A stretch of DNA of 64,000 nucleotides. It comes from a virus (Duplodnaviria > Caudoviricetes). Made by a program: the position numbers and the translations under genes. The notes under the pieces were generated by a model. It saw only the letters and a list, made by a program, of their open reading frames with translations. It was not told the origin of the DNA and did not search any database. Each line of letters begins with the position of its first letter. The first letter of the stretch is position 1. The stretch lies in the IMG/VR virus record IMGVR_UViG_3300038679_000357, positions 160,001-224,000 of that record. One strand, given 5' to 3'. Below, piece by piece: positions 7,681-64,000 of this stretch.

Positions 7681-9381
7681 TCAAGGCTGTATTTCCATAA
7701 GTCTTGATTTAACATTTTCGGCGCATCTCTCCCAATTAAACTCGTCAACTATCTTACGTCTGGCGTAAATTGCCATTTCGGCTGTTTTTTCTCGATTTTC
7801 ATACATCCAGCGCATCTTTTGCGCAATTTCATCTATCGCCCTGTCACTATAATCAACAAATTCCATTCCATGATAAAATGGGCTTATCCACTCTATGGAC
7901 TTATCAACAAGCTTCACTCGATCTGGGCGGACAAGAGTGGCAATATCGGCGTTCAAAAACATACGATGCCCTCCATGATCACTTGCCAACAATGGGACAC
8001 CAGACGCAATCGCTTCACACGCAGGAAGTCCAAACCCCTCTCCTCGACTTATCTGTAAACAGGCGGAAGCGCTATTATAGATTAACGGCATCATAAAGGT
8101 CGGAATAACGTCATCAACAAGAACGAGGTGGGGTTTATCTTTATTTTTCTCTCCTCGAACATAGTTGTTTATGTCTTCAAATATCTTAGCTGACATACTT
8201 TTTTGACCAACAAACCTCGAAACCATAACCATACTTACATCATCTCTGGACGTAAAAGCTCTCGAATAAGCCTTAATCATGACGTCCGGACCTTTACGCC
8301 AGTTCCAATTAAATACACTAAGAAAAACAAACCCCTTTGTTCCACCAGCAAAAAGCACGCTTCTATCACGTGGAGCGTAAGTTTCTGAGTCAACGCCAAG
8401 AGGCATTACACGCATACTTGACTTAACTCCAGAGGCAGCAAAAACCTGTCGATTCCATTCACAGGGAACCCAAATTTCATCAGCCCCAATCAACCTATGA
8501 ACAAGTGTGGGGTGGATTTTATTCTCAGTCTCCATCATAGTGTAAGCAATAACTCTGCCGCAATGTTTTCCAGGTACATTTGTGGCGTAAACTTTAGGAC
8601 TTTGAAGTGGAATCATATTTCTGGAAAGCGCCATCAATTTATCTTTAACTCCTTCCTCAACATCCATGAGGGTTGATATTAAAGATGGTTTCACACATAC
8701 GCCAAGGCGATCGAGATTAAAAACGTACTGACGATTCATATTTGCATATCCACCACCATCAAATATCGGACCTTCCCAGAACACACAAGGCTGCCCAGGA
8801 GATGCCAATATTGAGGAGGGATCAGCGAGAGCTTTATCCATTTCAACCCATTCACCATCAAAACATTGCTCAACTCTCACTAGACGAATTTGCTTATTAT
8901 GAAGTGATTTCTGCACTACCTCAGAAAAATAATCTTGAGCCGACAACACAGCTACTTCACGCTGTTTACCTAAAGTTAACCCAAGCCCCTCAATTGTTAT
9001 TGATGTATCGACAGCACGACCTATGACAAATCGTTTGTCTCCACCTTTTCTAATAGTCTTTGCTTGATCGACAGACGTTACAGGAGATTTTACCGGAGAT
9101 TTAGACTCTTCGTCATCATATTTGTATTTCACGCCTGATTTAGACCAAACGTCTGTTGATGGAACGACATGAAAACGATTCCCTGAAACTGCGGCGCAAT
9201 GTATGCCGCCCACGCTTTTTCCTACCACTTCTATTATTCCAGAGGCAATAAGAGATTTTAATTCAGTTGACTTACTGGCAATTCCATCATCAATATTGAT
9301 GGCTCCCTTAGATGCGGGTGGAACTCTGATTGAAATATCAGAAATCTCAATCCACATTCCCTTCTTATTGACAATCCTCAC
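7681..9381 (-). CDS. GT4-family (GT-B) glycosyltransferase with N-terminal extension
   Basis: WEGPIFDGGGYANMNR, MPLGVDSETY, FLSVFNWNWRKGPDVMIKAY, ISRGEGFGLPACEAIASGVPLLASDHGG (E-x7-E motif), FNWERCAE. Confidence 0.9.
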   Translation of the reverse strand: MRIVNKKGMWIEISDISIRVPPASKGAINIDDGIASKSTELKSLIASGIIEVVGKSVGGIHCAAVSGNRFHVVPSTDVWSKSGVKYKYDDEESKSPVKSPVTSVDQAKTIRKGGDKRFVIGRAVDTSITIEGLGLTLGKQREVAVLSAQDYFSEVVQKSLHNKQIRLVRVEQCFDGEWVEMDKALADPSSILASPGQPCVFWEGPIFDGGGYANMNRQYVFNLDRLGVCVKPSLISTLMDVEEGVKDKLMALSRNMIPLQSPKVYATNVPGKHCGRVIAYTMMETENKIHPTLVHRLIGADEIWVPCEWNRQVFAASGVKSSMRVMPLGVDSETYAPRDRSVLFAGGTKGFVFLSVFNWNWRKGPDVMIKAYSRAFTSRDDVSMVMVSRFVGQKSMSAKIFEDINNYVRGEKNKDKPHLVLVDDVIPTFMMPLIYNSASACLQISRGEGFGLPACEAIASGVPLLASDHGGHRMFLNADIATLVRPDRVKLVDKSIEWISPFYHGMEFVDYSDRAIDEIAQKMRWMYENREKTAEMAIYARRKIVDEFNWERCAENVKSRLMEIQP

Positions 9382-10838
9382 GGGTTAACCTCTCGACATA
9401 TCTCTGATAACCTTGAATGAACACGTTCAACGCATAACCGCCAATCAAATTTTTCAACGAGACGATCCCTCAGCTTCACTCCTTTTTTCAATGCGTCAGA
9501 ATGATTTTCATATACTGTACGCATATGATGTCGAAGAGTGTCAATGGCGGTTCTTCCATACTCTGGAAACTGTTGATTTTCATAAAAATGAGAAATCCAT
9601 GACATATTCCGGAATGGAGGATCAGTTCTGCGACTGGTGAAATAGCCATCTGGCGGAACCATATAAGCCACCTCGGAATCAAGAAAATCTCGCTGACCGC
9701 CATGATCCGATGCTATCACTGGAATACCACACGCGCCTGCCTCCATGTACGGCAACCCCTGCCCCTCACCACGTGACGGTAATACGAAGCAATGACAGGA
9801 ACGATATAACTTAGGCATATCTACGTCGGCGGTATAGTCGTTATGCAGGGCTATATGAGGAAGTTCTCCATCGGTTTTATGAACAAGCGACCTAACGTGC
9901 TTAAAATCAGACAAAATTCTCTGCTTTTTACCAGCCTGCCCCTCAAACCTAGTAGACATAATCAGACTGACATCATCCTTTTTTGAAAACTCTTCAAGAA
10001 AGGCTTGGATCATGATATCAAATCCCTTTCGATAGCTCCAGCCAAACACGCTCAAAAACTTAAACGAGCCGCCTGGAAGAGAAATTTTTTCTCCTTCTGG
10101 ACAGAACGCATCAGTATCAACCCCAAGAGGAAGTACCTTTATTGGCGCAAGCACTCCAGACTCACGAAAGACCTCTTCGTTCCATGTGCAAGGAACCCAC
10201 AGTTCGTCAGCCATATTATAGCGATCAACCAACTCTGGATGTATCCTAATGGATGTTTCCATCATTGTGTAAAGTATCTTCCTTCCCGCATGTGCAATTA
10301 CATCGGGAATGGTCATTCCATAAACTCGTGGGTATTTATTCGACAATTTTATCGATGACAATGACCTGAGAAAATCTTCTGTCCGCTTATTTACATTGCA
10401 AATCGTTTCCATGGGAATAGTCTTAATCATATCTCCCATAGAATTAAGTCCCATAATATAGGTTCGATTCATTCTGGCGTATCCACCATAATCAAACATT
10501 GGACCACCCCAATAAGCGCAAACATCAAATGTTTCAGGCTCTGGATCGGGAAGTGTAGGCATCTCTGTTATGTCCTCCAATTGAAATCCCACAGAATGAA
10601 GATCTAAACCAGCACGGCAAACATCATCAGTCATCAATCCTGGAACTTGAGACATATGAGAGAAGGACACGTTCTGTATAGAAACATGGTCAGTAACGGC
10701 AAATCCATCCTCATCAAAGTCAATCGGAGCAATATTGCCAACGACTTGTTTTGATTCAGTAGTTTTTACCCTAGATGCACGCTCAAGCGCCGCTTCGTAG
10801 GCGCTACGTGCTTTTGTGTTCTTTTCATCTAGTTCCAT
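9378..10838 (-). CDS. GT4-family (GT-B) glycosyltransferase, paralog of 7681..9381
   Basis: WGGPMFDYGGYARMNR, LPLGVDTDAF, FLSVFGWSYRKGFD, LPSRGEGQGLPYMEAGACGIPVIASDHGG, FDWRLCVE. First ATG is at 10838. Confidence 0.9.
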   Translation of the reverse strand: MELDEKNTKARSAYEAALERASRVKTTESKQVVGNIAPIDFDEDGFAVTDHVSIQNVSFSHMSQVPGLMTDDVCRAGLDLHSVGFQLEDITEMPTLPDPEPETFDVCAYWGGPMFDYGGYARMNRTYIMGLNSMGDMIKTIPMETICNVNKRTEDFLRSLSSIKLSNKYPRVYGMTIPDVIAHAGRKILYTMMETSIRIHPELVDRYNMADELWVPCTWNEEVFRESGVLAPIKVLPLGVDTDAFCPEGEKISLPGGSFKFLSVFGWSYRKGFDIMIQAFLEEFSKKDDVSLIMSTRFEGQAGKKQRILSDFKHVRSLVHKTDGELPHIALHNDYTADVDMPKLYRSCHCFVLPSRGEGQGLPYMEAGACGIPVIASDHGGQRDFLDSEVAYMVPPDGYFTSRRTDPPFRNMSWISHFYENQQFPEYGRTAIDTLRHHMRTVYENHSDALKKGVKLRDRLVEKFDWRLCVERVHSRLSEICREVNP

Positions 10839-10844
10839 GCGCAG

Positions 10845-10854
10845 ATTATACAAC
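10845..10854 (-). promoter_or_regulatory. Candidate -10 element GTTGTATAAT, 6 nt upstream of the GT4 ATG
   Basis: Plus strand reads attatacaac at 10845-10854; the same 10-mer occurs at 53440-53449. Confidence 0.4.
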
Positions 10855-10875
10855 GACAAAGGAATTGCGCACTAT

Positions 10876-12415: not shown

Positions 12416-12454
12416 ACACAAAAACAAAGCCCCCGCAGATAACTGCGGGGGCTT
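12416..12454 (-). terminator. Rho-independent terminator after the major capsid gene
   Basis: 12-bp perfect inverted repeat aagcccccgcag-ataa-ctgcgggggctt (12427-12454) followed on the minus strand by TGTTTTTGTG. A second small hairpin agaccgg-taaa-ccggtct lies at 12458-12475. Confidence 0.85.
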
Positions 12455-12493
12455 CTCAGACCGGTAAACCGGTCTTAGAGGTTCAAAACCTCA

Positions 12494-13360
12494 TCACGAA
12501 CCGCTGGAAACGACGACCTTGGCGCAAGCGTAGCTGTTAACCACGACAAAGCCAACTTCTTCGTAAATAACCCAGCCGAGACGAATACGGGACGGGTCGT
12601 CTGCCGGAAGGACAGTGATGTCCTGACGGATAGGCATTGCACCGAGATACTCGGCAGGAGCCAAGACGAACACGGTGTCGGTCGCCATCCTGGAGCTGAC
12701 GTGAATGTCGGCGGTCCAGATGTGCCCGAACAGACCAGTCGTCAGAACCTGACGGGTGGTCGCTTCGTCGTAGACGGTCTTGCCCCAGTTCCTGATGTCG
12801 ATGTAGCGGAATGCATGGCAAACCACTTTACCAACGGTCAGGTCGTGCTGCTCGACCAATCCGAAAGCCTGATTAAGAGCGGTGATCGAAAGCGCACCAC
12901 CAGTGCTGAGCACGGTGTGGTCTGCATCGATAGCGGCATTGATGACGCTGAAGATTTCAGTGTCTTCAACCTTGGCAATTGCTTCTTTCGCCTTGATCTG
13001 AGCGCGGTCGACAATGAAGAACCTACGAGCCTTCACTTCGGACAAACGAACAGTCGGGTGAGTTGCAATTTCGAACGTCGGGACAAGGATTTCCTCGCCT
13101 TCTTCAACCAACTGGGGAACTCCACCGCGACGGGAGATCTTCCAGGCGTTAGCCCGGACATCTTTCTCGTAGCGAGCATAAGCGCCCTGCGGCAATTCAT
13201 CAACCATGAGGAGCTTACGTCCAACCGCCTGGTATTCCAGTGCGCGACGGATCGGCTCGACCATGGCTTGAGCAAGAGCAACACGTCCACCCTCGGATTC
13301 CAAGGACTGGGCGATCAGGATTTCACGCTCCTGATTGACGGACTTTTTATCCATTGACAT
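12494..13360 (-). CDS. Major capsid protein, HK97 fold, no N-terminal delta domain
   Basis: 288 aa; GRVALAQAMVEPIRRALEYQAVGRKLLMVDELPQG...EEGEEILVPTFEIATHP...LGWVIYEEVGFVVVN; strong SD AAGGAAGGTG; biased GC-rich codons; terminator downstream; follows decoration and protease genes. Confidence 0.85.
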   Translation of the reverse strand: MSMDKKSVNQEREILIAQSLESEGGRVALAQAMVEPIRRALEYQAVGRKLLMVDELPQGAYARYEKDVRANAWKISRRGGVPQLVEEGEEILVPTFEIATHPTVRLSEVKARRFFIVDRAQIKAKEAIAKVEDTEIFSVINAAIDADHTVLSTGGALSITALNQAFGLVEQHDLTVGKVVCHAFRYIDIRNWGKTVYDEATTRQVLTTGLFGHIWTADIHVSSRMATDTVFVLAPAEYLGAMPIRQDITVLPADDPSRIRLGWVIYEEVGFVVVNSYACAKVVVSSGS

Positions 13361-13376: not shown

Positions 13377-13880
13377 TTATACGAGGAGTTTGAACTCGAT
13401 GTACTGGTTGTTGTTATCGCCACTGAGAGCCATGTCACCGTTGATATCGGTGCCAGGAACTCCGGACGGGTACAGACCGGCAGCACGGGTAAGAACTGCA
13501 ACGGCATCACCAGAGGAAGTAGCCTGAAGCTTTCCATTGGCAGAGCCGTAGAGCTTAACTCCAGTGAGGGCGGACTCAACGTCAGACTCGAACTGATCGG
13601 TAGCAAATTCGCCACCGCCAGAGTAGACGGTCATCTCGCCAGAAGCGCCAGTTTCGTTGTACATATCGGATGCGCGATTCTGCCATCCGGCGTCAACACC
13701 CGGCATGCCGGATGCGGACTGGGACTTTGTGTCGCCTGCCACGCCGAGAACAACTCCGCTACCATTGAAAGGAACAATTTCTCCGCTGTCATTCAATTTG
13801 ACAAGCTGTCCTTCAGTGATATTGGAACTGCCAATCGGGTGGGTGGCGGCCACGACAATATATTTTTCCACAAGTGCCAT
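13377..13880 (-). CDS. Capsid decoration/cement protein
   Basis: 167-aa Gly-rich beta protein (EGQLVKLNDSGE..., VLGVAGD, GVKLYGSANGKL) directly upstream of the MCP with the same codon bias; SD GGGAG. Confidence 0.65.
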   Translation of the reverse strand: MALVEKYIVVAATHPIGSSNITEGQLVKLNDSGEIVPFNGSGVVLGVAGDTKSQSASGMPGVDAGWQNRASDMYNETGASGEMTVYSGGGEFATDQFESDVESALTGVKLYGSANGKLQATSSGDAVAVLTRAAGLYPSGVPGTDINGDMALSGDNNNQYIEFKLLV

Positions 13881-19927: not shown

Positions 19928-19951
19928 CCTGGTAGGTCCCTTTTGGTTGTA

Positions 19952-34201: not shown

Positions 34202-35092
34202 TCATGGTGGCGGCAATGTGTGAATTTCAATTGAGTGCGCCACACAACCTCCTGGAATAACAGACATACTGTAGGTCAGATCATCCGGTCCACAATCAAC
34301 TATAAACGGAGATGTAAACTCCACGCACGGAGAAACACCACAATAGACTCCGAATACCCACCTGCTTCCAACCAGTCGAAGAATCCCATTTCCTCCTAAA
34401 CTTCCATCGTCAAAATACATACATGGAGAAATTCGTTGCATGCGATGAGAACCAATTAAATCAATACAGTCAATACATCCACCGCAACCACCAACCCCAG
34501 TAACCCCATCGAAAACAACATAATATTCTTCACTAAGAGACGAATCGCAGTAACTACACTGCACCTCAGCCACGTGCGAGCTATGACTGTGAGATGAACT
34601 TTCTGGATTATATGACGAAGATGAGCTTGAATAACTGGCACTTGAGCTTGAGCCAACGATAGACGGATCTCCTCCGACATACTCAACGGACACCTCAAAT
34701 GTCGCCAAAGAGGAATCAACGTAAGAAGCCTTCGGAGATGCCGCCATATGAATATATTTCGTCAAACTCGTAGATCTCATTGGTATGGTCAATACCGATC
34801 CAATTCCACAAAAATACTGAGTAAAAGAAACTGCAGGATTAAGAGCATCTAAAATAGCTACGGCAAAAAGACCATCATCACACAATCCGATGGATGATGG
34901 TACAGAATTATCTTTATCAACCGATAAAAAACTTAATTTAACCGATGACACGGATCGAATTCCGGAAACAGCAATATCAAATGCAATGGCTTCTCCAATA
35001 CGTCCAGATTGACATACGCCAAAGTCCAGCGAAGAAACAGCTCCTTCGCATAAACCTGTAGATAAATCATACTTTCTTACAGTTACTTCCAT
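34202..35092 (-). CDS. Virion-type protein: domain paralogous to 36721..37158, poly-Ser linker, Cys-rich C-terminus
   Basis: N-terminus VRKYDLSTGLCEGAVSSLDFG aligns by eye to VREYNPTTGKFVGVVNELEFG; SSSSASYSSSSSS tract; multiple Cys distally. Confidence 0.6.
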   Translation of the reverse strand: MEVTVRKYDLSTGLCEGAVSSLDFGVCQSGRIGEAIAFDIAVSGIRSVSSVKLSFLSVDKDNSVPSSIGLCDDGLFAVAILDALNPAVSFTQYFCGIGSVLTIPMRSTSLTKYIHMAASPKASYVDSSLATFEVSVEYVGGDPSIVGSSSSASYSSSSSSYNPESSSHSHSSHVAEVQCSYCDSSLSEEYYVVFDGVTGVGGCGGCIDCIDLIGSHRMQRISPCMYFDDGSLGGNGILRLVGSRWVFGVYCGVSPCVEFTSPFIVDCGPDDLTYSMSVIPGGCVAHSIEIHTLPPP

Positions 35093-49976: not shown

Positions 49977-50615
49977 TTAACAAATAGTTCTGCGGATCAA
50001 CAACGTGGTTATGTTGGGTAATGCTTCATTCCATCGTTTGCGGATCAAATCTTCTACGTTCGACCAAGCAACAACAACTGCATCTGGTTTTGTCCTATTT
50101 ATCCAATCCACAACCCCATCCCTGTATAAGTGGTACAAATGCTCGCCAGGTTTAAAATGACGCCACCCCATCAACTCGAAGAAACTAGCCACATCTGGTG
50201 TCTCCGGAAATGACAACAGACAATATTCCCACTTCATTAAAAATAAGTCGTTGATATTTTCAAAGTGTTCAAGAACATCACTCAAAACAACCAGACCCCA
50301 CGTCCTTGAATAGAGATCGTCCCTACTAATTACATTTTCTCCAACAACATCATATTCGCAGACCTCCTTGAATTTCCCGCGACAACAGTTGGCAAATATC
50401 CCATTCCCGCTTCCTACATCAACCATCGACATTTCTTTAATTTTCTCGTAAGGAATGTAAGCACACATAAACCCCATCCTAAGATAGGACATCTCTACAT
50501 TAGTGCTCTGTTTTGCTTTATAAGAATCATCATAGACGATTCTATGTTGATCAACCTGCTTGATAAAACCATTTTCGTAGGCATACCCAGTAGGAAGATC
50601 TAACTCCGCTCTCAT
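49977..50615 (-). CDS. Class I SAM-dependent methyltransferase (small-molecule/sugar type)
   Basis: MVDVGSGNG (motif I) and LVVLSDVLEHF; last gene of the GT cluster. Confidence 0.75.
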   Translation of the reverse strand: MRAELDLPTGYAYENGFIKQVDQHRIVYDDSYKAKQSTNVEMSYLRMGFMCAYIPYEKIKEMSMVDVGSGNGIFANCCRGKFKEVCEYDVVGENVISRDDLYSRTWGLVVLSDVLEHFENINDLFLMKWEYCLLSFPETPDVASFFELMGWRHFKPGEHLYHLYRDGVVDWINRTKPDAVVVAWSNVEDLIRKRWNEALPNITTLLIRRTIC

Positions 50616-50617: not shown

Positions 50618-51730
50618 TTACCTAAACTTTTTTATCTCATTTTCCAGTGCCTTACGCCGCTTCTGCATGTATTCAATCTCCTTCACTGGAATGATATTAT
50701 TTAACTCACTCAAAGATATACAGCAATCAAATTGCAGATATAAGAAGAAGGACTGAACAAGATCAAAAACCGACTCCCTTCTCTTCCTACTATTCTGGTC
50801 ATATTTCCCATCCATTTGAGTAAGAAGTTTCGGTATATTGTCGTCTTTTAAATGTCGTTCTCCCTTTTCACTAGCCCAATCCCTTCCATGAAACGCCCTA
50901 ACATGCTCATGGGTTTCAGAGAAAAACATGCACTTCGGTCTGTATCCACTATCTGTAATAATAGTTCCTTCGGGAAGAGACATTAACCTGGGAAGAAGTG
51001 ATGTTCTATAAATAGAATAATGAACGTTCGTCCAAAGATGAGACGCAAGAACCAACATATTTTCCTTGACGCCATTCTTCAACAAAACAAGGTTCATTGT
51101 TTCGAGATCGCCGGTAAACGGCCAGGTGTTATCCATTCCAATTTTCAGACGATGATCAAACACATCAAGAAAAACATCACCATACTTCCTCGCATCAATA
51201 AACATCGGAGTGTTACAGACAAACTTACCGTCAACTGTATCGTTTTTGAAAAATGGAGTTCTTTTGTCTCCATCAACATAACATGGGCATGAACCCTTTG
51301 TTTGGTCGGTTTTGTAATACCGAACAACATTATCATTCACCGCGACAACAACCGAAGTATTAGCTGCGATCTCAAACAGTTCTCGAACACCGGAAACGAG
51401 AAAAATATCAGTGTCAATAAAGCAAATTGACTTGTATTGTGTTCCTACTTCAGCCATGATTTTGTAACGGTAATACTTTACCGTCATAACCTTACCGAGC
51501 TTGGAATCCTTTGGTAGCGTTACTATCGGTATGAAGCGCACCTTAGTTTCCATTCCGCAACATTTGTTTTCTATAAACGACCTATATTTCTCCGTAACAC
51601 TTTCATCATGTATAACAACAACGTCAGCATATTTACCGCACCCAAACAGTTCAATACTATTTAATAGCGCGTTAAATAAATAGGTGTAATTATCGGTAAG
51701 ACTTAGAAAAAACGCATGGTCTTTCACCAA
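50618..51730 (-). CDS. GT-A fold glycosyltransferase (GT8-like)
   Basis: LLNSIELF...VVVIHD...YYRYKIM...SICFIDTDIF (DxD motif)...GDLETMNLVL. Confidence 0.7.
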   Translation of the reverse strand: MVKDHAFFLSLTDNYTYLFNALLNSIELFGCGKYADVVVIHDESVTEKYRSFIENKCCGMETKVRFIPIVTLPKDSKLGKVMTVKYYRYKIMAEVGTQYKSICFIDTDIFLVSGVRELFEIAANTSVVVAVNDNVVRYYKTDQTKGSCPCYVDGDKRTPFFKNDTVDGKFVCNTPMFIDARKYGDVFLDVFDHRLKIGMDNTWPFTGDLETMNLVLLKNGVKENMLVLASHLWTNVHYSIYRTSLLPRLMSLPEGTIITDSGYRPKCMFFSETHEHVRAFHGRDWASEKGERHLKDDNIPKLLTQMDGKYDQNSRKRRESVFDLVQSFFLYLQFDCCISLSELNNIIPVKEIEYMQKRRKALENEIKKFR

Positions 51731-51733: not shown

Positions 51734-53422
51734 CTACTCCTTGTTATGTGTATGAGTCTTCGGACGACCAGGCTCATAGAACCGGTAATACATTTCGATC
51801 CTCCTAATAACCTCATCGGCAGTGATCATATCCATGCAAAACGGTAACTCCACACCTTCTACTGAGTTGACAACGTATTCGCACATATTCTTACGATCCT
51901 TCTCATCATTATCACCAATAGGCTTAATTCTGCTCTTCCAACATCCTCCATTGTCACAGCAAGGAAGAGATCCGCACGTATGGATAAATTGATGTGAGGT
52001 ATAAGCCTGCCAATGAGAAGGCTCTCGCCCGCCAGCGATAACAACACATGGTCTATCTCGCCTACCATTACATGTACCCTGCTTAACTGGAACAGCGGCA
52101 GCTAATGTCATAGGATAACTACATGGGGTCAAAACACCAGAAGACGCCCACACCAATCGGATCAATTGACGGTCATCAGTTTTACCGACAAGATTTATTG
52201 TACCATTCAACTCTGGATGATTATGGGATTTATGTCCCATTTGAACGAACACAACTCTTCCAGCAAAATGATCAATAACTTTCTGATACCGTTCAACTGG
52301 CCACATTTTTGCAGTAAAATCATTTTTAAAACCAGCATTAAGAATCCAATAATGTACATCAGCGGCATAGCCAAACTGAGAAAACCAAGTATTTCTCTCT
52401 GTCCATCCCCATCCATCTTCGTTCGAGCCGATAACAATATGACCTCGACATAACCTATTTCTTATCCTGACGCCAAGAAGGGTTTCAAAATGATCTGTGA
52501 ACCCCTCAGAAAAGTGATATGGTCCCTGATTACTTTGATTAATCAATGGATATTCAGCACTATACACCTCAACACCAGGTTCTTTTTCATCTAGCTTCGT
52601 GATATATGGATTCGATTCCCATATACCCATAGAATTGGTGCGAACGTCTGTAATAAACTTTCCGGGATGATTCAAATGAAGATCGCGAATTGCCGCAGTC
52701 ATCATAACGATATCACCAGGCGCTTGAAAATTCTTAAAAATAACCTTCCTTTTATCGGAGCCAGACGAAGATACGATAGAGGTAGATTCCACCACTTTTT
52801 TAGGAGTATCTACAGATGGGACGGCTTTCTCCCTCTGTTTTCTAAACTTTTCAAGAGCTGCCTTTCTTCTTTCCTCAATAGACGGCGGATGAGGAACTAA
52901 ATCTGACGAACGTGTCTCAATAACTTTTTTTTCTTCAGGCTCTACTACCTTATTTTCAATCAAAGCCGGTTCAGTTGACTTATCTACAGTTGGAAGTTTA
53001 TCCTTTTTAGGCGGAATATCAGGTATGTCAATTTCACGCTGTTCATAAACCTGCTGTTCTACGACGTTGGTAAACAAATTTATCCACGACTTTAGCGCCC
53101 CATGAGAAATCCACTCTCTTCCACCTATATACTTAGACACAACTGACTTACGATCATCTGGAAGAGACTTAAACTCAGATACAAACAAGCTTAAAATAGA
53201 GGGGTATTTTGAATTAATATAACACGACGGACACCCTCCTGATGGAACATTTTTTTCAGCCGTCGAGCACAACTCTTTTGTCTCAGTAAAATTTTCAGAC
53301 ACTATTTGGTCTGTGTCAATCTTTTTTATTATATCCAACGCTACAGACGCTGGAGTAAGAATAGATTGAGGTTGCTTGCGGTTAACTAGCGTACTGATCT
53401 TTTTAAGCATATGAATCACCAT
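51734..53422 (-). CDS. GT9 (heptosyltransferase-like, GT-B) glycosyltransferase with N-terminal extension
   Basis: APGDIVMMTAAIRDLH..HP, AKMWPVERYQKV, INLVGKTDDRQLIRLV..S.GVL...SYPMTLAAAV. Confidence 0.8.
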   Translation of the reverse strand: MVIHMLKKISTLVNRKQPQSILTPASVALDIIKKIDTDQIVSENFTETKELCSTAEKNVPSGGCPSCYINSKYPSILSLFVSEFKSLPDDRKSVVSKYIGGREWISHGALKSWINLFTNVVEQQVYEQREIDIPDIPPKKDKLPTVDKSTEPALIENKVVEPEEKKVIETRSSDLVPHPPSIEERRKAALEKFRKQREKAVPSVDTPKKVVESTSIVSSSGSDKRKVIFKNFQAPGDIVMMTAAIRDLHLNHPGKFITDVRTNSMGIWESNPYITKLDEKEPGVEVYSAEYPLINQSNQGPYHFSEGFTDHFETLLGVRIRNRLCRGHIVIGSNEDGWGWTERNTWFSQFGYAADVHYWILNAGFKNDFTAKMWPVERYQKVIDHFAGRVVFVQMGHKSHNHPELNGTINLVGKTDDRQLIRLVWASSGVLTPCSYPMTLAAAVPVKQGTCNGRRDRPCVVIAGGREPSHWQAYTSHQFIHTCGSLPCCDNGGCWKSRIKPIGDNDEKDRKNMCEYVVNSVEGVELPFCMDMITADEVIRRIEMYYRFYEPGRPKTHTHNKE

Positions 53423-53439: not shown

Positions 53440-53469
53440 ATTATACAACACCACAACAAAATTAATCAA
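53440..53469 (-). promoter_or_regulatory. Candidate sigma70-type promoter for the GT9/GT8/MTase cluster
   Basis: Minus strand TTGATT-N18-TATAAT, 17 nt upstream of ATG 53422. Confidence 0.5.
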
Positions 53470-53924
53470 GGAGATGTAGAGGAGCTAGAGCTACTTGAAG
53501 AGCTAGAGCTACTTGAAGAGCTACTGAATGTCAACCAACACCTAATGTACTCTACGTTCAAATATTTTGACGAAGAGCTACTTTGGCTAGAAGATGATAT
53601 GCTCGAACTGCTTTCACTGGAAGACGACATACTTGAGCTTGATTTTGAAGACGAACTGGATCTTCCGTCAATTACAGCGCCAACTTGAACTTCTGAAATA
53701 CGATTTTCAACATATTTACGGGCTCCAGAAAAATGAAGTTCATCTTTAGCTCCATCAAGATCATTCCATGGTCCGTCTCCATTAAATCTAATATGATGAG
53801 TAATAAGCGAAGTGGGGTCGATTCCGATAGGATATCGGTCAGTCGGCAATGAAGATACCACCCCAGTTGCCGACACATCGATCAGCGGGGTAAAAACAAA
53901 AACATTCCATGGACCGACTATCAT
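53466..53924 (-). CDS. Small protein with two poly-Ser tracts
   Basis: About one third Ser, ending FSSSSSSSSSSSSSSSSTSP; directly upstream of the GT cluster. Confidence 0.6.
   Translation of the reverse strand: MIVGPWNVFVFTPLIDVSATGVVSSLPTDRYPIGIDPTSLITHHIRFNGDGPWNDLDGAKDELHFSGARKYVENRISEVQVGAVIDGRSSSSSKSSSSMSSSSESSSSISSSSQSSSSSKYLNVEYIRCWLTFSSSSSSSSSSSSSSSSTSP
53482..53524. repeat. 18-bp tandem repeat encoding poly-Ser
   Basis: gagctagagctacttgaa twice plus a partial third copy. Confidence 0.85.
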
Positions 53925-53964: not shown

Positions 53965-54960
53965 TTAACTTTCATCACTCTTCCGCTTTCTAGGCGACTC
54001 TCTCTTCGTATTCTCAGATAAATATTCAAGAATTGCCTCACCTTCGGTCTTCCCTTCGTCACGCTTTTTTGCAATTTCATCCCAATATTCAGACATCATA
54101 TATTGCGAAGTTGAATATTCGGATTTTTTAATGAGCGACTCCCTTGAGGAAGAAGCTGTAGGCATCTTGTCTAAACTTGGTTGATTATTCCCTGGAGGTT
54201 GTGGGGTTGGAGGAACAATCAATCGTCCAGCTCTTGGTCCATAAACTTCATAGAGATCATATCCAAGAATACCATTAACGTTAAAGGAGCGAAAATCTCC
54301 AAAAGCATGAGAACATTGTCCAACAATCAATGTTCTTCCGTTTTTTCCCGGCTTTAATTCATACGGAGAAAGAGGAAGCATATAATATGAAGAAACATTA
54401 CCGTTTGGAAGTTCATAATCAAAGGCAATTGCCAAATTGTACTTGTTGGCTATCGGAACAAGATCTATTACCGCCATATTGAGCATAAGATCAGGCATCG
54501 GATTTGACATTTGTTTCGGCGGAGATTGTTTGGGTGCAGGTTCAAACTTATCCTTAGATTCGTCTATTGGCAAAATGTCAGGAACATCATCCAGATACCC
54601 CTCATTCAGCACCTCATCATCTGACAATTGCGCCATTATCAATCTCGAACCTGGTATGATCCCGTTTCTCGCAAAAAAACCAGAATTTGCTTCAACCGCA
54701 TACAACACCGGTTCAGAACTGACAACTGATTTTACCGAATAGGGATGCAGAGGAAGAATCTCAGAAATTACCTTGTCTTCCCGAACGTAGGCAATGTCGA
54801 GTGGAATCCTTGTGTCTTTCATCCAAAACGAAAGCTTTCGAGGGGACGAGAAAGTGAAAACCATCCCGGAATTCATCCCAAGACAGTCACGATGCATCAA
54901 CCCAAGTGACCTGGAATAGTCATTGGCGGCGGATTCAGCGTATAATCTTACCCTTGCCAT
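53965..54960 (-). CDS. DUF192 (UPF0127) domain fused to a WYL-like domain
   Basis: RSLGLMHRDCL...GMVFTF...SFWMKDTRIPLDIAYV...YAVEANSGFF (DUF192); IAFDYELPNG...P...LIVGQC...FRSFNVNGI (WYL-like). Confidence 0.7.
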   Translation of the reverse strand: MARVRLYAESAANDYSRSLGLMHRDCLGMNSGMVFTFSSPRKLSFWMKDTRIPLDIAYVREDKVISEILPLHPYSVKSVVSSEPVLYAVEANSGFFARNGIIPGSRLIMAQLSDDEVLNEGYLDDVPDILPIDESKDKFEPAPKQSPPKQMSNPMPDLMLNMAVIDLVPIANKYNLAIAFDYELPNGNVSSYYMLPLSPYELKPGKNGRTLIVGQCSHAFGDFRSFNVNGILGYDLYEVYGPRAGRLIVPPTPQPPGNNQPSLDKMPTASSSRESLIKKSEYSTSQYMMSEYWDEIAKKRDEGKTEGEAILEYLSENTKRESPRKRKSDES

Positions 54961-59390: not shown

Positions 59391-59396
59391 TTTTCC

Positions 59397-59774: not shown

Positions 59775-59782
59775 ATCAACTC

Positions 59783-60130: not shown

Positions 60131-60194
60131 TTTATGTTCTCCTACGTTATCGAACATTATACATCGGATCTCGCCCATATATTCTGATTAACCA

Positions 60195-61976
60195 TTACAT
60201 AGTCCTACCAACATTTGCCAAAACAGAAGATGGAAGAGAATTAACGATTCCATAACCGGACGCCATCCAAGTTGCTCCTGCGATACAGTCGGCTAAATCA
60301 TCCGTCGGAAAATCAGATTTCACATCCTTATCTATCGACACCCCTCTTGTTGTCGACTTAACCTTTAAGTTAAGTAATTCTCCGTATATGTAATCATCGT
60401 GGTACATCCAAAACTCATCGGCATTCATTAGATCTTCAAGATTTTTGTAAAAAGAGGCTTTTCCGCCTCTCGAAAACGAAAGTCTTGTTGCAATGATTCC
60501 CTTCCCCTTTAAAAACGCTATACTATGAACAGAATTCCATAAATCGTAAGAAATTCTCATGGTCTTGAATTTTCGACAGATATCGTAAACTTCCGCATCA
60601 ATTGCTTGAAAATCAAGCAACTGACCTCCTGGTTTCCACATCCGATGTGTAGCCAAATAACACCGATGCCTCTTTTCTCCACGACGATTGACATACTTCG
60701 TCTTACCTACAACTGCTAATGCATAGTTATCCCTGGTTGAGGCTGGATCGACATGGATATAATATTCAACATGCGGTTCTGCTCCTGTGCGCATGAACAT
60801 AAACGTTTTTATGGCGTTAGAAACGGTATCTTTAGCAAAATAATTTCTCTTTGATCCGCTCTTTCTCCACATCGACCCATATTCTGTATCGAACGACTCC
60901 TGGTCTCTTTTTCTTTCTTTTGTTAGAAACTCACAATCATATGGAAGATCCTCGTTTATATCCCATGTAGCCAACCTAAAAGACAAGGTCTTGCGAAATT
61001 CATCATCCACACTGTTGCCATTTTCCCATATCTCATAAAAAATACCACTAGGATAATTTACTGAAGAAATTTCAACTAGTCTACCGTCACCCTTAATCGT
61101 GAATTTTGCGATAGACGGAATGAGTGCGTTGTAAAAAGTTCTTCCAGAAACGACTGGGTTTTCATCGTAAAATGCCAACTCGTCAAACAAAATAGCAGCA
61201 GCAGAATAACCACGTAAGGTATCTGGATTGCTATGTCCGCAAACCAATACAATTGATCCTTTTACAGAAATATTGGTGGTCGGATCAGATTTGTTCCGAA
61301 TATCCGCATCAGTAAGAAGACGGATTTCAGTAGATAAGGCATCGCCATCGATTCTACCGCGAAAAAACTTACATTTTCTCAATCGATTTTTGACCTGTGA
61401 GAATAAACGTTGTGACTGAGGTCCAGAATTAGCTACATTGATAATGGCGATTTCTTCGTCATCAGGAATACCATAAAACTTATACGGATCACCAATCTTT
61501 ATGAGCTTATATGCCTCATACGCAACAATAATCGAAGTCATAATGGTTTTTGATGCGCGACGACCAAGCGCCAGGTGTAATTCATTGAATGTAAAATTCG
61601 AAGGTTCTCCTGGATTTTTACCATCCCTCATTTTTCTAAGTCGATGAATTACGTTATCAAGTTGTTTGTCGTGTAACCATTTTTCCTCTTCCGGCGACAA
61701 TGTTACGTTTTCATTTCCCCTTGTCCCCATATAGAAGCACTTTAAAATAACTCGCTGCCCAAGAAAAAGGGGGAAATTATGTTGAGGAAGATCAAGAAAA
61801 TCTGGATGGTTACAGAAGGTTATTATGTCAACTATATAATCAAACTGATCAACAGAAGTTTGCTCAACAGATAGTCCGGCATCAGCCCGGACCTTGTTCA
61901 TCAATACTTCTAGTGGAGCAGAAACTTGTCCATCCTGATGTCTGTCAGAATGCGTGTTTTTCTTTCTTGGGGGCAT
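60195..61976 (-). CDS. terL: Terminase large subunit
   Basis: ATPase LALGRRASKT (Walker A variant), IINVANSGPQSQ, TLRGYSAAAILFDELAF (Walker B), LVEISS (coupling motif); RNase H-like nuclease IHVDPAST...DDLADCIAG. Confidence 0.92.
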   Translation of the reverse strand: MPPRKKNTHSDRHQDGQVSAPLEVLMNKVRADAGLSVEQTSVDQFDYIVDIITFCNHPDFLDLPQHNFPLFLGQRVILKCFYMGTRGNENVTLSPEEEKWLHDKQLDNVIHRLRKMRDGKNPGEPSNFTFNELHLALGRRASKTIMTSIIVAYEAYKLIKIGDPYKFYGIPDDEEIAIINVANSGPQSQRLFSQVKNRLRKCKFFRGRIDGDALSTEIRLLTDADIRNKSDPTTNISVKGSIVLVCGHSNPDTLRGYSAAAILFDELAFYDENPVVSGRTFYNALIPSIAKFTIKGDGRLVEISSVNYPSGIFYEIWENGNSVDDEFRKTLSFRLATWDINEDLPYDCEFLTKERKRDQESFDTEYGSMWRKSGSKRNYFAKDTVSNAIKTFMFMRTGAEPHVEYYIHVDPASTRDNYALAVVGKTKYVNRRGEKRHRCYLATHRMWKPGGQLLDFQAIDAEVYDICRKFKTMRISYDLWNSVHSIAFLKGKGIIATRLSFSRGGKASFYKNLEDLMNADEFWMYHDDYIYGELLNLKVKSTTRGVSIDKDVKSDFPTDDLADCIAGATWMASGYGIVNSLPSSVLANVGRTM

Positions 61977-61977
61977 T

Positions 61978-63285
61978 TTATTCCATGAAGATTTCTACAT
62001 CATCATCGGTCATCCATACATCTGTAATGAGACCGTTGTCCATCTCTATCCTTACCGGAAATTCAACATACGTGTTATAAAATTCCATCCTATCTTGGTC
62101 AATTTTACCAGCCATCCCTTCATATTCTGACCCTGGTTTAATGACCTTAACCAAGGACGCCCCCTTTAATCTCTCAACATTGTCTTTAATTACATCATTT
62201 ATTTCTTGCTGATATGAGGCAATTTTCGTAACTGGATCTGTAATTTTCACAGTATAACTTGATGATTTTGTTTCTTTTCCGCCAACAGCAGAAAATGTCA
62301 CCACCTTTCTCGTCTTTCCATCGCCAGAAATGGCGTCAAAGCTATCTGGTCCCTTAGACATCATCTTAGATGACAATAAGATAATATCATCGACGTCAAG
62401 GGGTTGCATATGACCAACCGCCAACAATGACGGAATCATCACATCCATATAGTGAGAATAGCTAAACGGAGACGTTTCACGACACTTTGTAATACCACGG
62501 AAAAGCGCGTTTTCTCCAACGTGAACAACAACTCTTTTATCGTCGGAAATAACATGAACATCATATCCCGTCATCGACGGAATCATGCCGAGTATTTTAG
62601 GATCGGTCATCCCTATTGCACCACAAGCCCGGTCTACATAAAAAGAGGCAAGCTCAGGAAGAAAATCAATATTTTTTGTGTTTGACGTCTTAATAAAACC
62701 AATCCACCCAGCCGCCTTTGGCGTTTCAAATTGCATCGGTTCAGATTTTTCGGTAGTATTTTCAGACTGCATCCAGCGTTTATAATTGCTCGAAATGTAT
62801 TGAAGGATATCCTGCATTTGCGATTTTAGTTCCTTCAACTTTACAAGATTATCATTATTTTTGTCGTCACCTACATCTTTTTCAACTTCCTTGATCATCA
62901 TATCCATTTCTCCGCCATCCTTGGCATAAGTATCAACATATGATTTCAAGGCTGGGACCGTACGATCTCTATTGTTGAATGACTCATTTTCTTCGTCGGA
63001 AGCAATTTCTTTTAGTTTTCCACTGCAATAATCTATAATCGACTTGTACTTTGATACAATGTTAGCATGGATCATGTTCATGTTATCCATGGCATCGTAA
63101 GCAATCCTATTGCGAAAAAGAAAATCAACTGCTGATACAGCGGCAAGTTCACGGCTAGAATACACACCTCCATCAGATAACCCATACCGCCTAGAGTCAA
63201 ACGCAACTTTTCCAGAAGCGTTTCTTATTCTAAACCAATACTGGTTATCTCGACAAGAGATATCAACTAGGTCGTAATACTGCAT
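61978..63285 (-). CDS. Hypothetical protein with coiled-coil and C-terminal SH3/KOW-like segment
   Basis: SD AAGGA before ATG 63285; C-terminal LVKVIKPGSEYEGMAGKI...VRIEMDNG. Confidence 0.55.
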   Translation of the reverse strand: MQYYDLVDISCRDNQYWFRIRNASGKVAFDSRRYGLSDGGVYSSRELAAVSAVDFLFRNRIAYDAMDNMNMIHANIVSKYKSIIDYCSGKLKEIASDEENESFNNRDRTVPALKSYVDTYAKDGGEMDMMIKEVEKDVGDDKNNDNLVKLKELKSQMQDILQYISSNYKRWMQSENTTEKSEPMQFETPKAAGWIGFIKTSNTKNIDFLPELASFYVDRACGAIGMTDPKILGMIPSMTGYDVHVISDDKRVVVHVGENALFRGITKCRETSPFSYSHYMDVMIPSLLAVGHMQPLDVDDIILLSSKMMSKGPDSFDAISGDGKTRKVVTFSAVGGKETKSSSYTVKITDPVTKIASYQQEINDVIKDNVERLKGASLVKVIKPGSEYEGMAGKIDQDRMEFYNTYVEFPVRIEMDNGLITDVWMTDDDVEIFME

Positions 63286-64000
63286 AAATCCTTCACCTTT
63301 TTGAACGAATCGGCTCCAAATAGACTTATACAACGTTTGCCGTATACACTCCTATCACTTGATAGCGCAGAACAAGACTGATTATGAATACAGATTGTAG
63401 GAACTCTTAATAATCCAGACAGATTTGTTAACAAACTATCTGAACCAATCACCACCTTAGCCGTGAGCATCATCTCCATATATTCAGATAGCATCATTCC
63501 TCTAGCATCTATAGATATCCAATCCGGACAAGGATCATCAAGTGTTCCCATACAGACTGACGAAGATCCTGGTACTGGATCTATCAATGGAAGAATCCTT
63601 CTCTCGTTGTTTCTGCTTCCAAAATGATAATAAATCATATCTCCGCCAATCCAGTTTACAGAGGGGGCTGGAAACTCCACATTATTCGAAGAAGTATCGC
63701 CCCATAATCCACCACAATAAGCTAAAAACGCTGCCACATGACACCCAGTAGGAATCCATCGAGGGCAACAATTGTAATACCGATCATAGCCAGGATATAA
63801 CACTTCCAAAATGGAGGTCGAATATCTGGACATATCTATACCAGCTACTGCCTCATCCATTGGTGGATTCCACATCTCAGTGCTGATACATTCTCCTATT
63901 GGCATTCCGATCTTAGACAACACCGGATAGACTGAAGAAAAACGTGAGTTTACCAATATATCTGGAGCCTGACCATTAAGTTTAGTCGCCAACGATGCCG
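63267..64000 (-). CDS. GT9-like glycosyltransferase, 5' end probably outside the window
   Basis: SEYMEMMLTAKVVIGSDSLLTNLSGLLRVPTICIH matches the GT9 C-terminal DS..H motif; the frame is open to the window edge. Confidence 0.65.
   Translation of the reverse strand, partial: ASLATKLNGQAPDILVNSRFSSVYPVLSKIGMPIGECISTEMWNPPMDEAVAGIDMSRYSTSILEVLYPGYDRYYNCCPRWIPTGCHVAAFLAYCGGLWGDTSSNNVEFPAPSVNWIGGDMIYYHFGSRNNERRILPLIDPVPGSSSVCMGTLDDPCPDWISIDARGMMLSEYMEMMLTAKVVIGSDSLLTNLSGLLRVPTICIHNQSCSALSSDRSVYGKRCISLFGADSFKKVKDLCSITT

Follow-up and report, generated by a model that had tools for sequence, protein, structure and literature searches.

Glycosyltransferase and methyltransferase genes among structural and poly-serine protein genes of a phage-G-like jumbo phage: a candidate virion glycosylation system

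Serine-rich-repeat adhesins of Gram-positive bacteria are O-glycosylated in the cytoplasm by the GT4 pair GtfA/GtfB and then by GT8 and GT2 extenders, and these glycosyltransferase (GT) genes are clustered beside the substrate gene. The GT9-fold enzyme TibC heptosylates serine, not threonine, residues of a protein encoded beside it (PMC4358343). Mycobacteriophages glycosylate capsid and tail-tube proteins via GTs of their own (Freeman 2023, as cited in PMC12363180 and PMC12619734), and the capsid glycan of chlorovirus PBCV-1 is made by soluble GTs, GMD and a methyltransferase domain (PMC5408694, PMC9614988).

Here we analysed a window of 64,000 nucleotides (positions 160,001 to 224,000 of IMG/VR record IMGVR_UViG_3300038679_000357) from a 255-kb phage-G-like jumbo phage, a relative of Bacillus phage G, with a genome completeness of 97%. 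Positions below are those of the window and all features given lie on its minus strand. A sequence-only reading had counted at least five GTs of three families plus a methyltransferase and had proposed a virion glycosylation pathway. Four GTs, i.e. a tandem GT4 pair, a GT9-fold enzyme and a GT8, were verified together with one SAM methyltransferase, but the fifth GT gave no GT signal in any test. This candidate, a 451-aa protein (61978..63333) encoded directly upstream of the terminase large subunit TerL (60195..61976; phrog_2 E 1.7e-24; tblastn to annotated terminases), had been called GT9-like. It had no match in Pfam, PHROGs, NCBIfam or PDB sequences, hhalign against the profile of the GT9-like enzyme returned a probability of 0.6%, and its Atlas model had a pLDDT of 0.53. 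Because it is not a demonstrable GT, the window holds four verified GTs, not five. The GT and methyltransferase genes are closely spaced among genes for structural or fibre-like proteins; a 785-aa portal protein (29108..31465; phrog_16240 E 2.8e-46) is encoded in the window as well.

Three of the enzymes form a triad: the GT9-fold GT of 562 aa (51734..53422), the GT8 of 370 aa (50618..51730) and the class I SAM-dependent methyltransferase of 212 aa (49977..50615). Its reported position between a poly-Ser mini-protein and a giant poly-Ser protein was borne out in order, families and tracts. The own PF01075 score of the GT9-like enzyme was below the cut-off (15.9 vs 22), while its C-terminal ~320 aa share 50-55% identity with hundreds of PF01075-carrying proteins of ~330 aa, many of which also contain a fused GT2 or methyltransferase domain. 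The AF2 model (pLDDT 86) matched GT9 structures with Z scores of 19-23, the next fold reaching Z 11. It predicts a confidently modelled N-terminal domain (1-135), a disordered linker and a GT-B domain at about 220-550, which holds an invariant Cys cluster. The GT8 scored 29.1 bits with Pfam PF01501 (cut-off 24.3); the DTD motif of its N-terminal GT-A domain aligned to the DxD of the WbbM GT8 domain, and ~230 aa follow C-terminally. The methyltransferase matched Methyltransf_23 (31.3 bits, cut-off 27) and phrog_6564.

Upstream of the triad lies the mini-protein of 152 aa (53466..53924; 32% Ser), with two poly-Ser tracts, one of 31 residues and a C-terminal one of 16 residues. Downstream follows a 1470-aa protein (45560..49972; 15% Ser) with four poly-Ser tracts between its C-terminal domains. 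The gaps from the mini-protein through GT9-like, GT8 and methyltransferase to the 1470-aa protein are 43, 3, 2 and 4 nt, and a scan found no strong terminator inside the block. The 1470-aa protein had weak matches to Ig_Rha78A_N and NHL and only 3 homologs among 5.8 billion proteins; it is presumably a fibre or virion protein. Its earlier description as a poly-Ser propeller stands for the poly-Ser part, while the propeller label goes back to one sub-threshold NHL repeat. The next gene encodes a tail-fibre-like protein of 364 aa (44455..45549) with a fibre-type N-terminus and internal repeats in its sequence. Its first 60 aa match 12 PHROG families (tail-fibre, tail-spike or structural), and homologs come after the giant protein in the related contig L092.

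Two more proteins of the window carry poly-Ser tracts, one of 540 aa (35092..36714; 37 residues; no Pfam or PHROG match) and one of 300 aa with a Cys-rich C-terminus (34202..35104; 13 residues). The poly-Ser proteins had no structural match in PHROGs or Pfam and no match in isolated phages, and neither signal peptides nor strong transmembrane segments were found in them. Their position and the fibre-like neighbour suggest that they are part of the virion. All six Ser codons are in use in the tracts with many switches between TCN and AGY, and AGY makes up 44% of Ser codons there vs 23% genome-wide. Thus selection acts on serine itself, and slippage does not account for the tracts.

Conservation of the block was analysed with the gene for a DUF192-domain protein (331 aa; 53965..54960; Pfam PF02643 82.6 bits) as an anchor, which 18 of the 20 related records contain. 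In the window and, at 45-56% identity, in contigs L086, L091, L092 and L093, DUF192 is followed by one or more poly-Ser proteins, GT9-like, GT8, methyltransferase and giant poly-Ser protein in this order, and so it is in the genes listed for a genome of 470 kb. In L086, L091 and L092 the GT9-like gene is immediately followed by a GT8 ortholog (56-62% identity), and gene calls place a 370-374-aa gene at this site in a GCA_024449895.1 contig and in L093. Methyltransferase orthologs (50-56% identity) are always preceded by the GT8 gene. A poly-Ser protein lies on the upstream side of the GT9-like gene in L086, L091, L092 and L093 as well, and orthologs of the 1470-aa protein in L091, L092 and L093 have poly-Ser tracts at equivalent positions. 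The poly-Ser tracts are carried by differing, non-homologous proteins. Flanking poly-Ser proteins accompanied the triad in 5/5 relatives, while in eight triad-less relatives no poly-Ser ORF was found within 18 kb past the same DUF192 anchor. This association (5/5 vs 0/8, in samples that are not phylogenetically independent) is more than chance. On the other hand, the GT-rich relatives G008 and G020 (17 and 5 GT1/GT2 matches) have no poly-Ser tracts, which shows that poly-Ser acceptors are no general requirement of the GTs in this clade. As many as 31 poly-Ser proteins but no triad are encoded by G005, the closest complete relative; poly-Ser thus does not require the triad, and the triad is not typical of these phages.

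The GT9-like enzyme resembles TibC/AAH (BAHT; PMC4358343; PDB 4rap, 4rb4) in having a GT9-like GT-B fold with an extra N-terminal domain, a conserved cysteine cluster in the C-lobe, whose equivalence to the iron finger is putative, and a gene directly beside that of a Ser-rich protein. In contrast, its N-terminal domain showed no alignment with the TibC beta-barrel, and the acceptors TibA and AIDA-I are beta-helix repeats while the phage tracts are homopolymeric Ser. Moreover, the modelled GT9-like domain matches WaaF and WaaC as well as TibC, and with Z 19.5 over 269 aligned residues TibC is no nearer to it than the LPS heptosyltransferases WaaF and 3tov (Z 21-23), the best matches being 3tov (Z 23.2) and 1psw (Z 21.4). 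Unlike WaaC/WaaF the enzyme has an extra 220-aa N-terminal region that occurs only in phage versions, and it has neither a membrane-associated context nor LPS genes nearby. No gene of the GmhA or HldE family was found in the phage genome, and an ADP-heptose pathway is not encoded by the phage. A heptose-containing glycan, raised earlier as a possibility, is a guess from the fold.

Because sugar enzymes lie among particle genes and the triad is wedged between poly-Ser proteins, the phage probably coats parts of its own particle with sugar. We regard a cytoplasmic toolkit that glycosylates the structural proteins of the phage during assembly as the best-fitting reading and give it about an even chance, based on context and analogy; acceptors, donor sugars and the order of the enzyme steps are what we infer. 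The mini-protein, the triad, the 1470-aa protein and the tail-fibre-like protein would be one co-transcribed block. The GT9-fold enzyme would attach the first O-linked sugar to serines in these poly-Ser tracts, like TibC/AAH on autotransporters, the GT8 as a retaining GT-A enzyme may then extend the glycan, and the methyltransferase may O-methylate a sugar. Such a scheme resembles that of the mycobacteriophages Che8, Corndog and Myrna (Freeman et al. 2023, Cell Host Microbe, as cited in the papers above) in that the phage brings its own soluble GTs and that structural proteins are proposed as acceptors. The mycobacteriophage glycans, as reported there, were measured on the C-termini of capsid and tail-tube subunits, whereas the present phage is known from its genes; the acceptors proposed for it are poly-Ser tracts, both internal and C-terminal, in a mini-protein and in giant proteins, and its enzyme set is larger (GT9-fold, GT8 and methyltransferase; GT4 pair; Gmd). 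Ser-rich tracts, GT4 and GT8/GT2 families and GT genes beside the substrate gene are also features of the serine-rich-repeat adhesin system, which differs by the DUF1975 insertion and SecA2/Y2 export, both missing from the phage.

In jumbo phages GT clusters are usually proposed to remodel the host envelope (PMC7824862, section 3.4.10). Applied here, the enzymes would modify LPS core or O-antigen, capsule or teichoic acid during infection, blocking superinfection or keeping progeny from sticking to debris, and the poly-Ser tracts would be unrelated flexible linkers. GT4, GT2, GT8 and GT9 are indeed classic LPS and EPS families, GT9 enzymes being mostly LPS heptosyltransferases, and the best partial NCBIfam matches were the EPS enzymes EpsE and EpsD, far below cut-offs. 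The strong differences in GT content among relatives are as expected of arms-race genes. However, no transmembrane-like segment or obvious membrane anchor was found in the GTs or the methyltransferase. Nor was a protein with at least six transmembrane-like segments found in the genome, which thus has no Wzx, Wzy, GtrC or oligosaccharyltransferase-type protein, and an initiating enzyme, flippase, polymerase or Gtr-type membrane protein is absent. Soluble GTs can use lipid-linked intermediates at the inner membrane face via host flippases. Yet, the GT genes lie in tightly packed late or structural runs instead of early or moron positions, and the triad retains its poly-Ser neighbours across the divergence given above. 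Taken together, we consider envelope remodelling rather unlikely.

The enzymes could also glycosylate hypermodified bases of the phage DNA for evasion of restriction. Phage GT-A and GT-B enzymes, some adding heptose, hypermodify 5hmC, and the GT-bearing viral contigs of the same survey are mostly without known role (10.1101/2023.12.21.572611). All known routes of DNA glycosylation enter through ThyA-family, Tet_JBP or C5-DNA-methylase genes (10.1101/2023.12.21.572611; PMC13326640). The absence of a hydroxymethylase noted for the window extends to the genome, which at 97% completeness has no thymidylate-synthase-family hydroxymethylase, 5hoC synthase, Tet/JBP dioxygenase or C5 cytosine methylase. 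In favour of this reading, a DNA N6/N4 methylase is encoded in the window. The GT genes, however, are not clustered with genes of nucleotide metabolism and the best Foldseek matches were not T4 beta-GT-like, which makes a role in DNA modification highly improbable.

The GT4 pair lies in the capsid region, as the sequence-only reading had stated, and begins 1.6 kb downstream of the major capsid protein (MCP; 288 aa; 12494..13360; phrog_2522 E 2.4e-67), a homolog of the phage G major head protein gp27 (57% identity by tblastn). Directly upstream of the MCP a 167-aa protein (13377..13880) occupies the position of the phage G capsid decoration protein gp26, with homologs at the same site in 68 of 80 related loci. 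GT4b (493 aa; 9378..10859) is soluble with a GT-B fold and matched Glyco_trans_1_4 with 59.9 and Glycos_transf_1 with 55.5 bits; its paralog GT4a (566 aa; 7681..9381; Glycos_transf_1 44.8 bits) has a longer N-terminal region. Both exceed the Pfam cut-offs for the two families and match phrog_2170 (E 2e-23 for GT4a, 2.7e-29 for GT4b). The genes overlap by 4 nt, and the proteins are 36-37% identical with a conserved SRGEG...EA motif. The catalytic motif is retained in both paralogs, so neither is an inactive partner like GtfB; GtfA itself (PDB 4pqg) ranked 43 among the Foldseek matches of GT4b, a distant structural match only. The nearest solved relative of GT4b is the chlorovirus NY-2A GT4 B736L (3oy2), both by sequence (E 6.5e-6 at only about 16% identity) and by fold (AF2 model pLDDT 76; Foldseek E 2.7e-18). 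It binds GDP-mannose, and the donors of the GT4 pair may be GDP-sugars. The genome-wide check for nucleotide-sugar genes yielded Gmd (GDP-mannose 4,6-dehydratase; E 8e-120; TIGR01472 409 bits), which could supply a GDP-6-deoxyhexose precursor. Soluble GTs, this dehydratase and a methyltransferase are likewise found in chloroviruses PBCV-1 and NY-2A (A064R with GT and methyltransferase, GMD, A546L/B736L GT4), where the methyltransferase methylates a terminal sugar (PMC5408694, PMC9614988). The methyl cap that the sequence-only reading had proposed as possible would follow by analogy with A064R. PBCV-1 differs in having N-linked glycans on its MCP and a eukaryotic host; the phage has no GMER, and its methyltransferase is a separate gene.

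The GT4 pair would add sugars to the head or to other virion proteins. In 13 related loci the MCP is followed on the same strand, 0.7-4 kb downstream, by a GT4 ortholog, and in 14 of 56 loci of at least 15 kb such an ortholog lies within 10 kb of the MCP. Three small ORFs lie between MCP and GT4 pair. The two are also separated by a strong terminator-like hairpin directly after the MCP stop (12426..12455; 13-bp stem, 9 G-C pairs, T-rich tail), called from a consensus scan only, which counts against virion glycosylation. In none of the relatives was a poly-Ser protein found less than 10 kb from the MCP, so an acceptor for the GT4 pair is not obvious. This is consistent with mixed roles, where the clusters are split among virion proteins, host glycans and small molecules, or the triad glycosylates poly-Ser proteins outside the virion; secreted or cell-surface decoys and assembly scaffolds are the options named. 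The lack of poly-Ser in GT-rich relatives and of recognised structural domains in the poly-Ser proteins points the same way, as do the GT genes of the genome, which form five separate clusters of differing family make-up. We judge such a split unlikely: there is no positive evidence for other acceptors, the poly-Ser proteins lack the signal peptides and strong transmembrane segments mentioned above, and the 1470-aa protein adjoins fibre-like genes. Under the virion glycosylation reading, which keeps its soluble enzymes, its structural and poly-Ser neighbours and Gmd, three more GT pairs elsewhere in the genome may belong to the same toolkit. At least four further GTs are encoded outside the window, and two GT2-type genes lie just past its end (genome 224521-226028).

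The sequence-only reading had proposed a virion glycosylation pathway of at least five glycosyltransferases (GTs) from three families plus a methyltransferase (MTase). Three of these genes adjoin as a triad: a GT9-like gene (51734-53422, -), a GT8 gene (50618-51730, -) and a SAM-dependent MTase gene (49977-50615, -). The GT8 protein, of a retaining GT-A family, scored 29.1 bits against PF01501 with a cut-off of 24.3, and its D106-T-D108 aligned with the DSD (DxD) of the GT8 domain of WbbM. The 212-aa MTase was indeed of class I, with 31.3 bits for Methyltransf_23 (cut-off 27) and a match to phrog_6564. The assignment to GT9 held for the fold, a GT-B fold of the GT9 type, and not for the protein's own PF01075 score of 15.9-17.5 bits, which is below the gathering score of 22. 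Over its C-terminal ~320 residues the protein shares 50-55% identity with hundreds of ~330-aa proteins carrying PF01075 in precomputed annotation. The AF2 model (pLDDT 86) gave VIA-align Z-scores of 23.2 (3tov), 21.4 (WaaF), 19.5 (TibC) and 19.2 (WaaC) vs 11.3 for the next fold, and Foldseek matched it to GT9 structures with E 4e-11. PDB sequence searches with the GT9-like protein, the GT9-like profile and the MTase yielded no usable match.

Four cysteines (C488, C489, C494, C514) do not vary in the C-lobe of the GT9-like family (42 sequences; residues 459-529), and two more, C459 and C529, are nearly invariant. TibC has a four-cysteine iron finger in its C-lobe (Cys339/342/358/370; PMC4358343), and the phage cysteine cluster could be a metal site resembling it. 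The cluster was also found in ~330-aa bacterial homologs. The N-termini differ: alignments with TibC begin at residue 220 of the phage model and residue 90 of TibC, and the N-domain of the phage protein (1-135), of mixed alpha/beta structure, does not align to the flattened N-terminal beta-barrel of TibC, the barrel typical of BAHT enzymes. In other organisms the ~330-aa GT9 module is fused to GT2 and methyltransferase domains, which supports the idea of one common pathway for the three activities. The bacterial contexts of this family and the context of a Streptomyces phage GT homolog gave no pointer to the acceptor. In Polynucleobacter (L089:9001-13604) a ~330-aa homolog with 53% identity to the phage domain lies beside a Methyltransf_21 gene, and the same island holds a TPR/GT41-like (O-GlcNAc-transferase-like) gene next to the GT9 homolog as well as toxin-antitoxin pairs.

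The claimed poly-Ser neighbours of the triad are real. A 152-aa mini-protein (53466-53924), the GT9-like, GT8 and MTase genes and a giant 1470-aa protein (45560-49972) follow each other with gaps of 43, 3, 2 and 4 nt, and no convincing terminator was found within the block. The serine content is 15-32% in the flanking proteins vs 4-8% in the triad enzymes. The poly-Ser tracts use all six Ser codons with frequent switches between TCN and AGY, e.g. 48 in a tract of 85 residues; thus serine is selected at the protein level. AGY codons amount to 44% in the tracts vs 23% genome-wide. Among the 46 tRNAs of the genome (aragorn; genome 1-36000, outside the window) four are tRNA-Ser, which cover all six Ser codons. 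Complex prediction for the GT9-like enzyme and the mini-protein returned a score of 0.00 and a partner pLDDT of 27, which speaks neither for nor against an interaction. The 1470-aa protein had only three homologs in the protein collection and no match in isolated phages.

The window is part of a 255,142-bp IMG/VR record with a completeness of 97% (CheckV), and all its genes lie on the minus strand. The major capsid protein (MCP; 12494-13360, -) matched phrog_2522 (E 2e-67) and has 57% identity to Bacillus phage G gp27; a 167-aa gene directly upstream sits in the slot of the phage G decoration protein gp26. Portal (29108-31465, -) and TerL (60195-61976, -) were recognisable. Relatives of the MCP (58-79% identity) were found on 150 viral contigs, which in some cases reach up to 548 kb. 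Because of the MCP and gp26-position matches and the MCP relatives on these contigs, the phage is, judged by its sequence, a member of the phage-G-like huge-phage clade. IMG/VR labels the record as 'provirus'; a host-like flank was not seen.

A related-locus search with the single GT9-like protein returned no loci. Relatives were obtained as full-length GT9-like homologs (45-65% identity), which were traced to their contigs via protein search and contig look-ups. The order DUF192 protein (53965-54960 in the window), one or more small or large poly-Ser proteins, GT9-like, GT8, MTase and a 1400-1700-aa protein was found on three contigs (L091, L092, L093) and in the gene list of one 470-kb genome. 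A further contig, L086, keeps this order up to the MTase, where it stops, the position of the giant protein being beyond its end. In every case the proteins flanking the triad bear poly-Ser tracts, and these proteins are not all mutually homologous. Thus an adjacency of enzyme gene and Ser-rich protein genes like that of the BAHT systems is present and conserved. In L086 the triad is immediately preceded by an inserted sulfotransferase-like gene (6927-7973, +; weak PF13469/PF00685), which suggests that the glycan of this relative may also carry sulfate.

In eight other phage-G-like genomes the 18 kb after the DUF192 anchor contained no triad, no homolog of the 1470-aa protein and no poly-Ser ORF. 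The contrast of 5/5 vs 0/8 would give p ~0.0008 in Fisher's test, but it may reflect one evolutionary event because the five triad-bearing genomes form one subclade.

Four relatives were scanned in full and one in part for poly-Ser proteins and for GT1 and GT2 family matches. The phage's own genome, with the triad, has eight poly-Ser proteins and six GT matches. Its closest complete relative, G005 (MCP 77%), has 31 and seven and is devoid of the triad; one of its proteins, of 4276 aa, carries about 100 separate poly-Ser tracts (G005:C1:261791-274621, -; loci L116-L117), besides 30 further poly-Ser proteins. No poly-Ser protein was found in G007, G011, G020 and the scanned 254 of 494 kb of G008, with zero, two (weak), five and 17 GT matches, respectively. 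Poly-Ser tracts were thus confined to GT-bearing genomes among those compared. Yet GTs without poly-Ser are common and poly-Ser occurs without the triad in G005; therefore poly-Ser acceptors alone are insufficient to account for the GT richness of the clade, and triad and poly-Ser are linked at the level of the subclade. It is quite plausible that the picture is mixed, with separate GT clusters serving separate targets. GT1/GT2 gene numbers range from 0 to 18 per phage-G-like genome, and in the 494-kb phage one uninterrupted reading frame of at least 2500 aa holds at least five GT2 domains (G008:C1:430163-437398, +). Whole relatives were scanned because the poly-Ser tail of the mini-protein, used as a query in a six-frame search, recovered only itself and none of the seven further poly-Ser proteins of its own genome. 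The DNA pattern (WSN)x12, tried as a poly-Ser counter on 21 related genomes, was discarded as unspecific since it also matches acidic tracts on the other strand.

The tandem GT4 pair claimed downstream of the MCP was confirmed, both genes exceeding the Pfam cut-offs (26.4 for PF00534 and 27 for PF13692) and matching phrog_2170. GT4b (493 aa; 9378-10859, -) scored 55.5 bits for Glycos_transf_1 and 59.9 bits for Glyco_trans_1_4; the values for GT4a (566 aa; 7681-9381, -) were 44.8 and 39.2 bits. Their reading frames share 4 nt. The AF2 model of GT4b has the two-lobed GT-B fold, and its top Foldseek matches were all GT4 enzymes, a retaining family. R363-G364-E365-G366 and E373 (GT4 acidic motif, E-x7-E region) are invariant across 16 sequences. 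All three GT4 paralogs of the genome keep the motif SRGEG...EA, and thus the pair is not an arrangement of GtfA with an inactive GtfB. The nearest solved relative by sequence was B736L of chlorovirus NY-2A (E 6.5e-6), which also ranked first by fold with E 2.7e-18, three orders of magnitude better than the next match in Foldseek. B736L is a GT4 enzyme that binds GDP-mannose; its acceptor is not yet established (PMC9614988).

In 13 related loci a GT4 ortholog (450-504 aa, catalytic motif intact) is encoded on the MCP strand, 0.7-4 kb downstream of the MCP. Counting loci of at least 15 kb, an ortholog was within 10 kb of the MCP in 14/56; in G005 it is 12 kb downstream. A homolog of the window's 344-aa gene comes after the ortholog in three loci. 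Directly after the MCP stop a strong terminator-like hairpin is present (12426-12455, -; 13-bp stem, 9 G-C pairs, T-rich tail), so the GT4 pair does not simply share the transcript of the MCP. The neighbourhood of the pair showed no apparent Ser-rich acceptor. Poly-Ser ORFs near the MCP occurred in 1/56 loci (of at least 15 kb), too rarely to compare loci with and without an MCP-adjacent GT4. A ~55-aa N-terminal module supposedly common to GT4a and the neighbouring acidic 502-aa protein was not supported (best BLASTP segment E 2.6). In 17 related loci homologs of a 682-aa ORF (2320-4368, -), with a LAGLIDADG homing-endonuclease domain (150-310) and an N6/N4 DNA methylase domain (573-681), lie 1-4 kb downstream of the MCP, a slot filled by GT4 in other relatives.

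The fifth enzyme, a GT9-like gene upstream of TerL (61978-63333, 451 aa), failed every test and was rejected, as a glycosyltransferase signal was absent throughout. Because of this the window holds four verified GTs, one fewer than claimed; the three families and the MTase stand. Six-frame family searches and Pfam scans of the rest of the genome revealed a GT4 and GT2 pair (genome 99.3-101.4 kb), a Glyco_trans_1_2 GT-B enzyme with a weak GT9-like gene (genome 149.7-152.2 kb) and a GT2 with a weak GT2 just past the end of the window (genome 224.5-226.0 kb). Of the nucleotide-sugar genes to be checked, a full-length GDP-mannose 4,6-dehydratase (E 8e-120) was found among the replication genes; NTP_transferase, GmhA-type (SIS_2) and HldE-type (CTP_transf_like) genes were absent from the genome. 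ADP-heptose, if it is the donor, would come from the host since the phage has no GmhA- or HldE-type gene; the predicted fold is the one basis on which heptose may be proposed.

Known routes to glycosylated DNA bases, among them the T4, 5mYOX and 5hoC types of phage system, all begin with a ThyA-family, Tet/JBP or C5-methylase enzyme (PMC13326640). The sequence-only reading saw no hydroxymethylase in the window, and this extends to the 97%-complete genome, where PF00303 (ThyA family) gave nothing above noise and PF12851 (Tet/JBP) and PF00145 (C5 methylase) were absent. Glycosylation of phage DNA by the GTs is thus unlikely because the base-hydroxylating enzymes it needs, a ThyA-family hydroxymethylase or 5hoC synthase, or a C5-MTase with Tet/JBP, are absent.

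Remodelling of the host envelope, the role usually proposed for GT clusters of jumbo phages (PMC7824862), is a possible function, as lipid-linked intermediates are accessible to soluble GTs. It leaves the conserved poly-Ser neighbourhood unexplained. Moreover, the hydropathy scan did not reveal the membrane components of seroconversion, O-antigen or capsule systems (GtrA/GtrC, Wzx/Wzy, initiating transferase): the GTs and the MTase have no membrane-spanning segments, and none of the 248 ORFs of the genome exceeds five TM-like segments. By this measure the phage does not encode a flippase, a polymerase or a protein of the Gtr or oligosaccharyltransferase type. Cytoplasmic phage proteins are the best candidates for the acceptors, being the most economical choice because the enzymes are soluble and late-positioned, a base-hydroxylating route is missing and export machinery is lacking; this support comes from context.

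For such cytoplasmic acceptors we infer the steps, donors and acceptors of a triad pathway as follows. The GT9-fold enzyme would initiate O-glycosylation on serines of the adjoining poly-Ser tracts, GT8 would elongate the glycan and the MTase would cap it. Precedents are TibC/AAH, Ser-specific enzymes of the GT9 fold whose genes adjoin that of the substrate (PMC4358343), and PBCV-1 with soluble GTs, a viral GDP-mannose dehydratase (GMD) and a methyltransferase domain in A064R (PMC5408694). Mycobacteriophages are a further precedent, with glycans demonstrated on capsid and tail proteins there, whereas the present system is known from the genes of a metagenomic phage. Tentatively, and with rather limited confidence, we suggest that the subclade has mucin-like fibres, in which homopolymeric Ser linkers and tails of virion proteins would be densely O-glycosylated by phage enzymes: a GT9-fold initiator with its own N-terminal targeting domain, GT8 extension, an O-methyl cap and, in one relative, a sulfotransferase. 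If so, phages would have their own equivalent of the BAHT and serine-rich-repeat systems of bacteria, and their virion glycosylation would include a second type with a distinct mechanism. No paper on phages that pair GT modules with poly-serine tracts was found in the literature; the pairing, related as it is to known phage virion glycosylation, is apparently unpublished.

To our knowledge, virion glycosylation has been measured only in a few mycobacteriophages and giant algal viruses. The virion glycans of mycobacteriophages shield the particles from antibodies. Should huge environmental phages possess modular kits for coating serine-only linkers with sugar, particle surfaces would be chemically richer than structure-based models assume, with effects on host recognition, adhesion to mucus or biofilm matrix, immune recognition and resistance to proteases. 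The very large uncharacterised ~330-aa GT9 family, with its frequent GT2 and methyltransferase fusions, would then gain a function as well. The triad and its flanking mini-substrate are compact enough for co-expression in E. coli.

Finally, the head module has an unusual content, with three giant genes between portal and capsid (14048-29111, -). The 1443-aa protein had no match, the 1622-aa protein carries a prohead-protease domain at its N-terminus and the 1959-aa protein a central AAA ATPase domain. Local GC around the MCP reaches 0.51 vs about 0.41 elsewhere. TerL keeps two syntenic neighbours in every relative examined: a 787-aa protein that has a tRNA-nucleotidyltransferase/poly(A)-polymerase head domain at its C-terminus (55420-57783, -) and a trypsin-like peptidase (58359-59390, -). 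One of the tRNAs has a CUA (amber) anticodon, and the phage encodes an actin-like protein of the Volactin family (L003:8924-9985, corresponding to genome 154923-155984, -; PF25216, E 2.5e-59).
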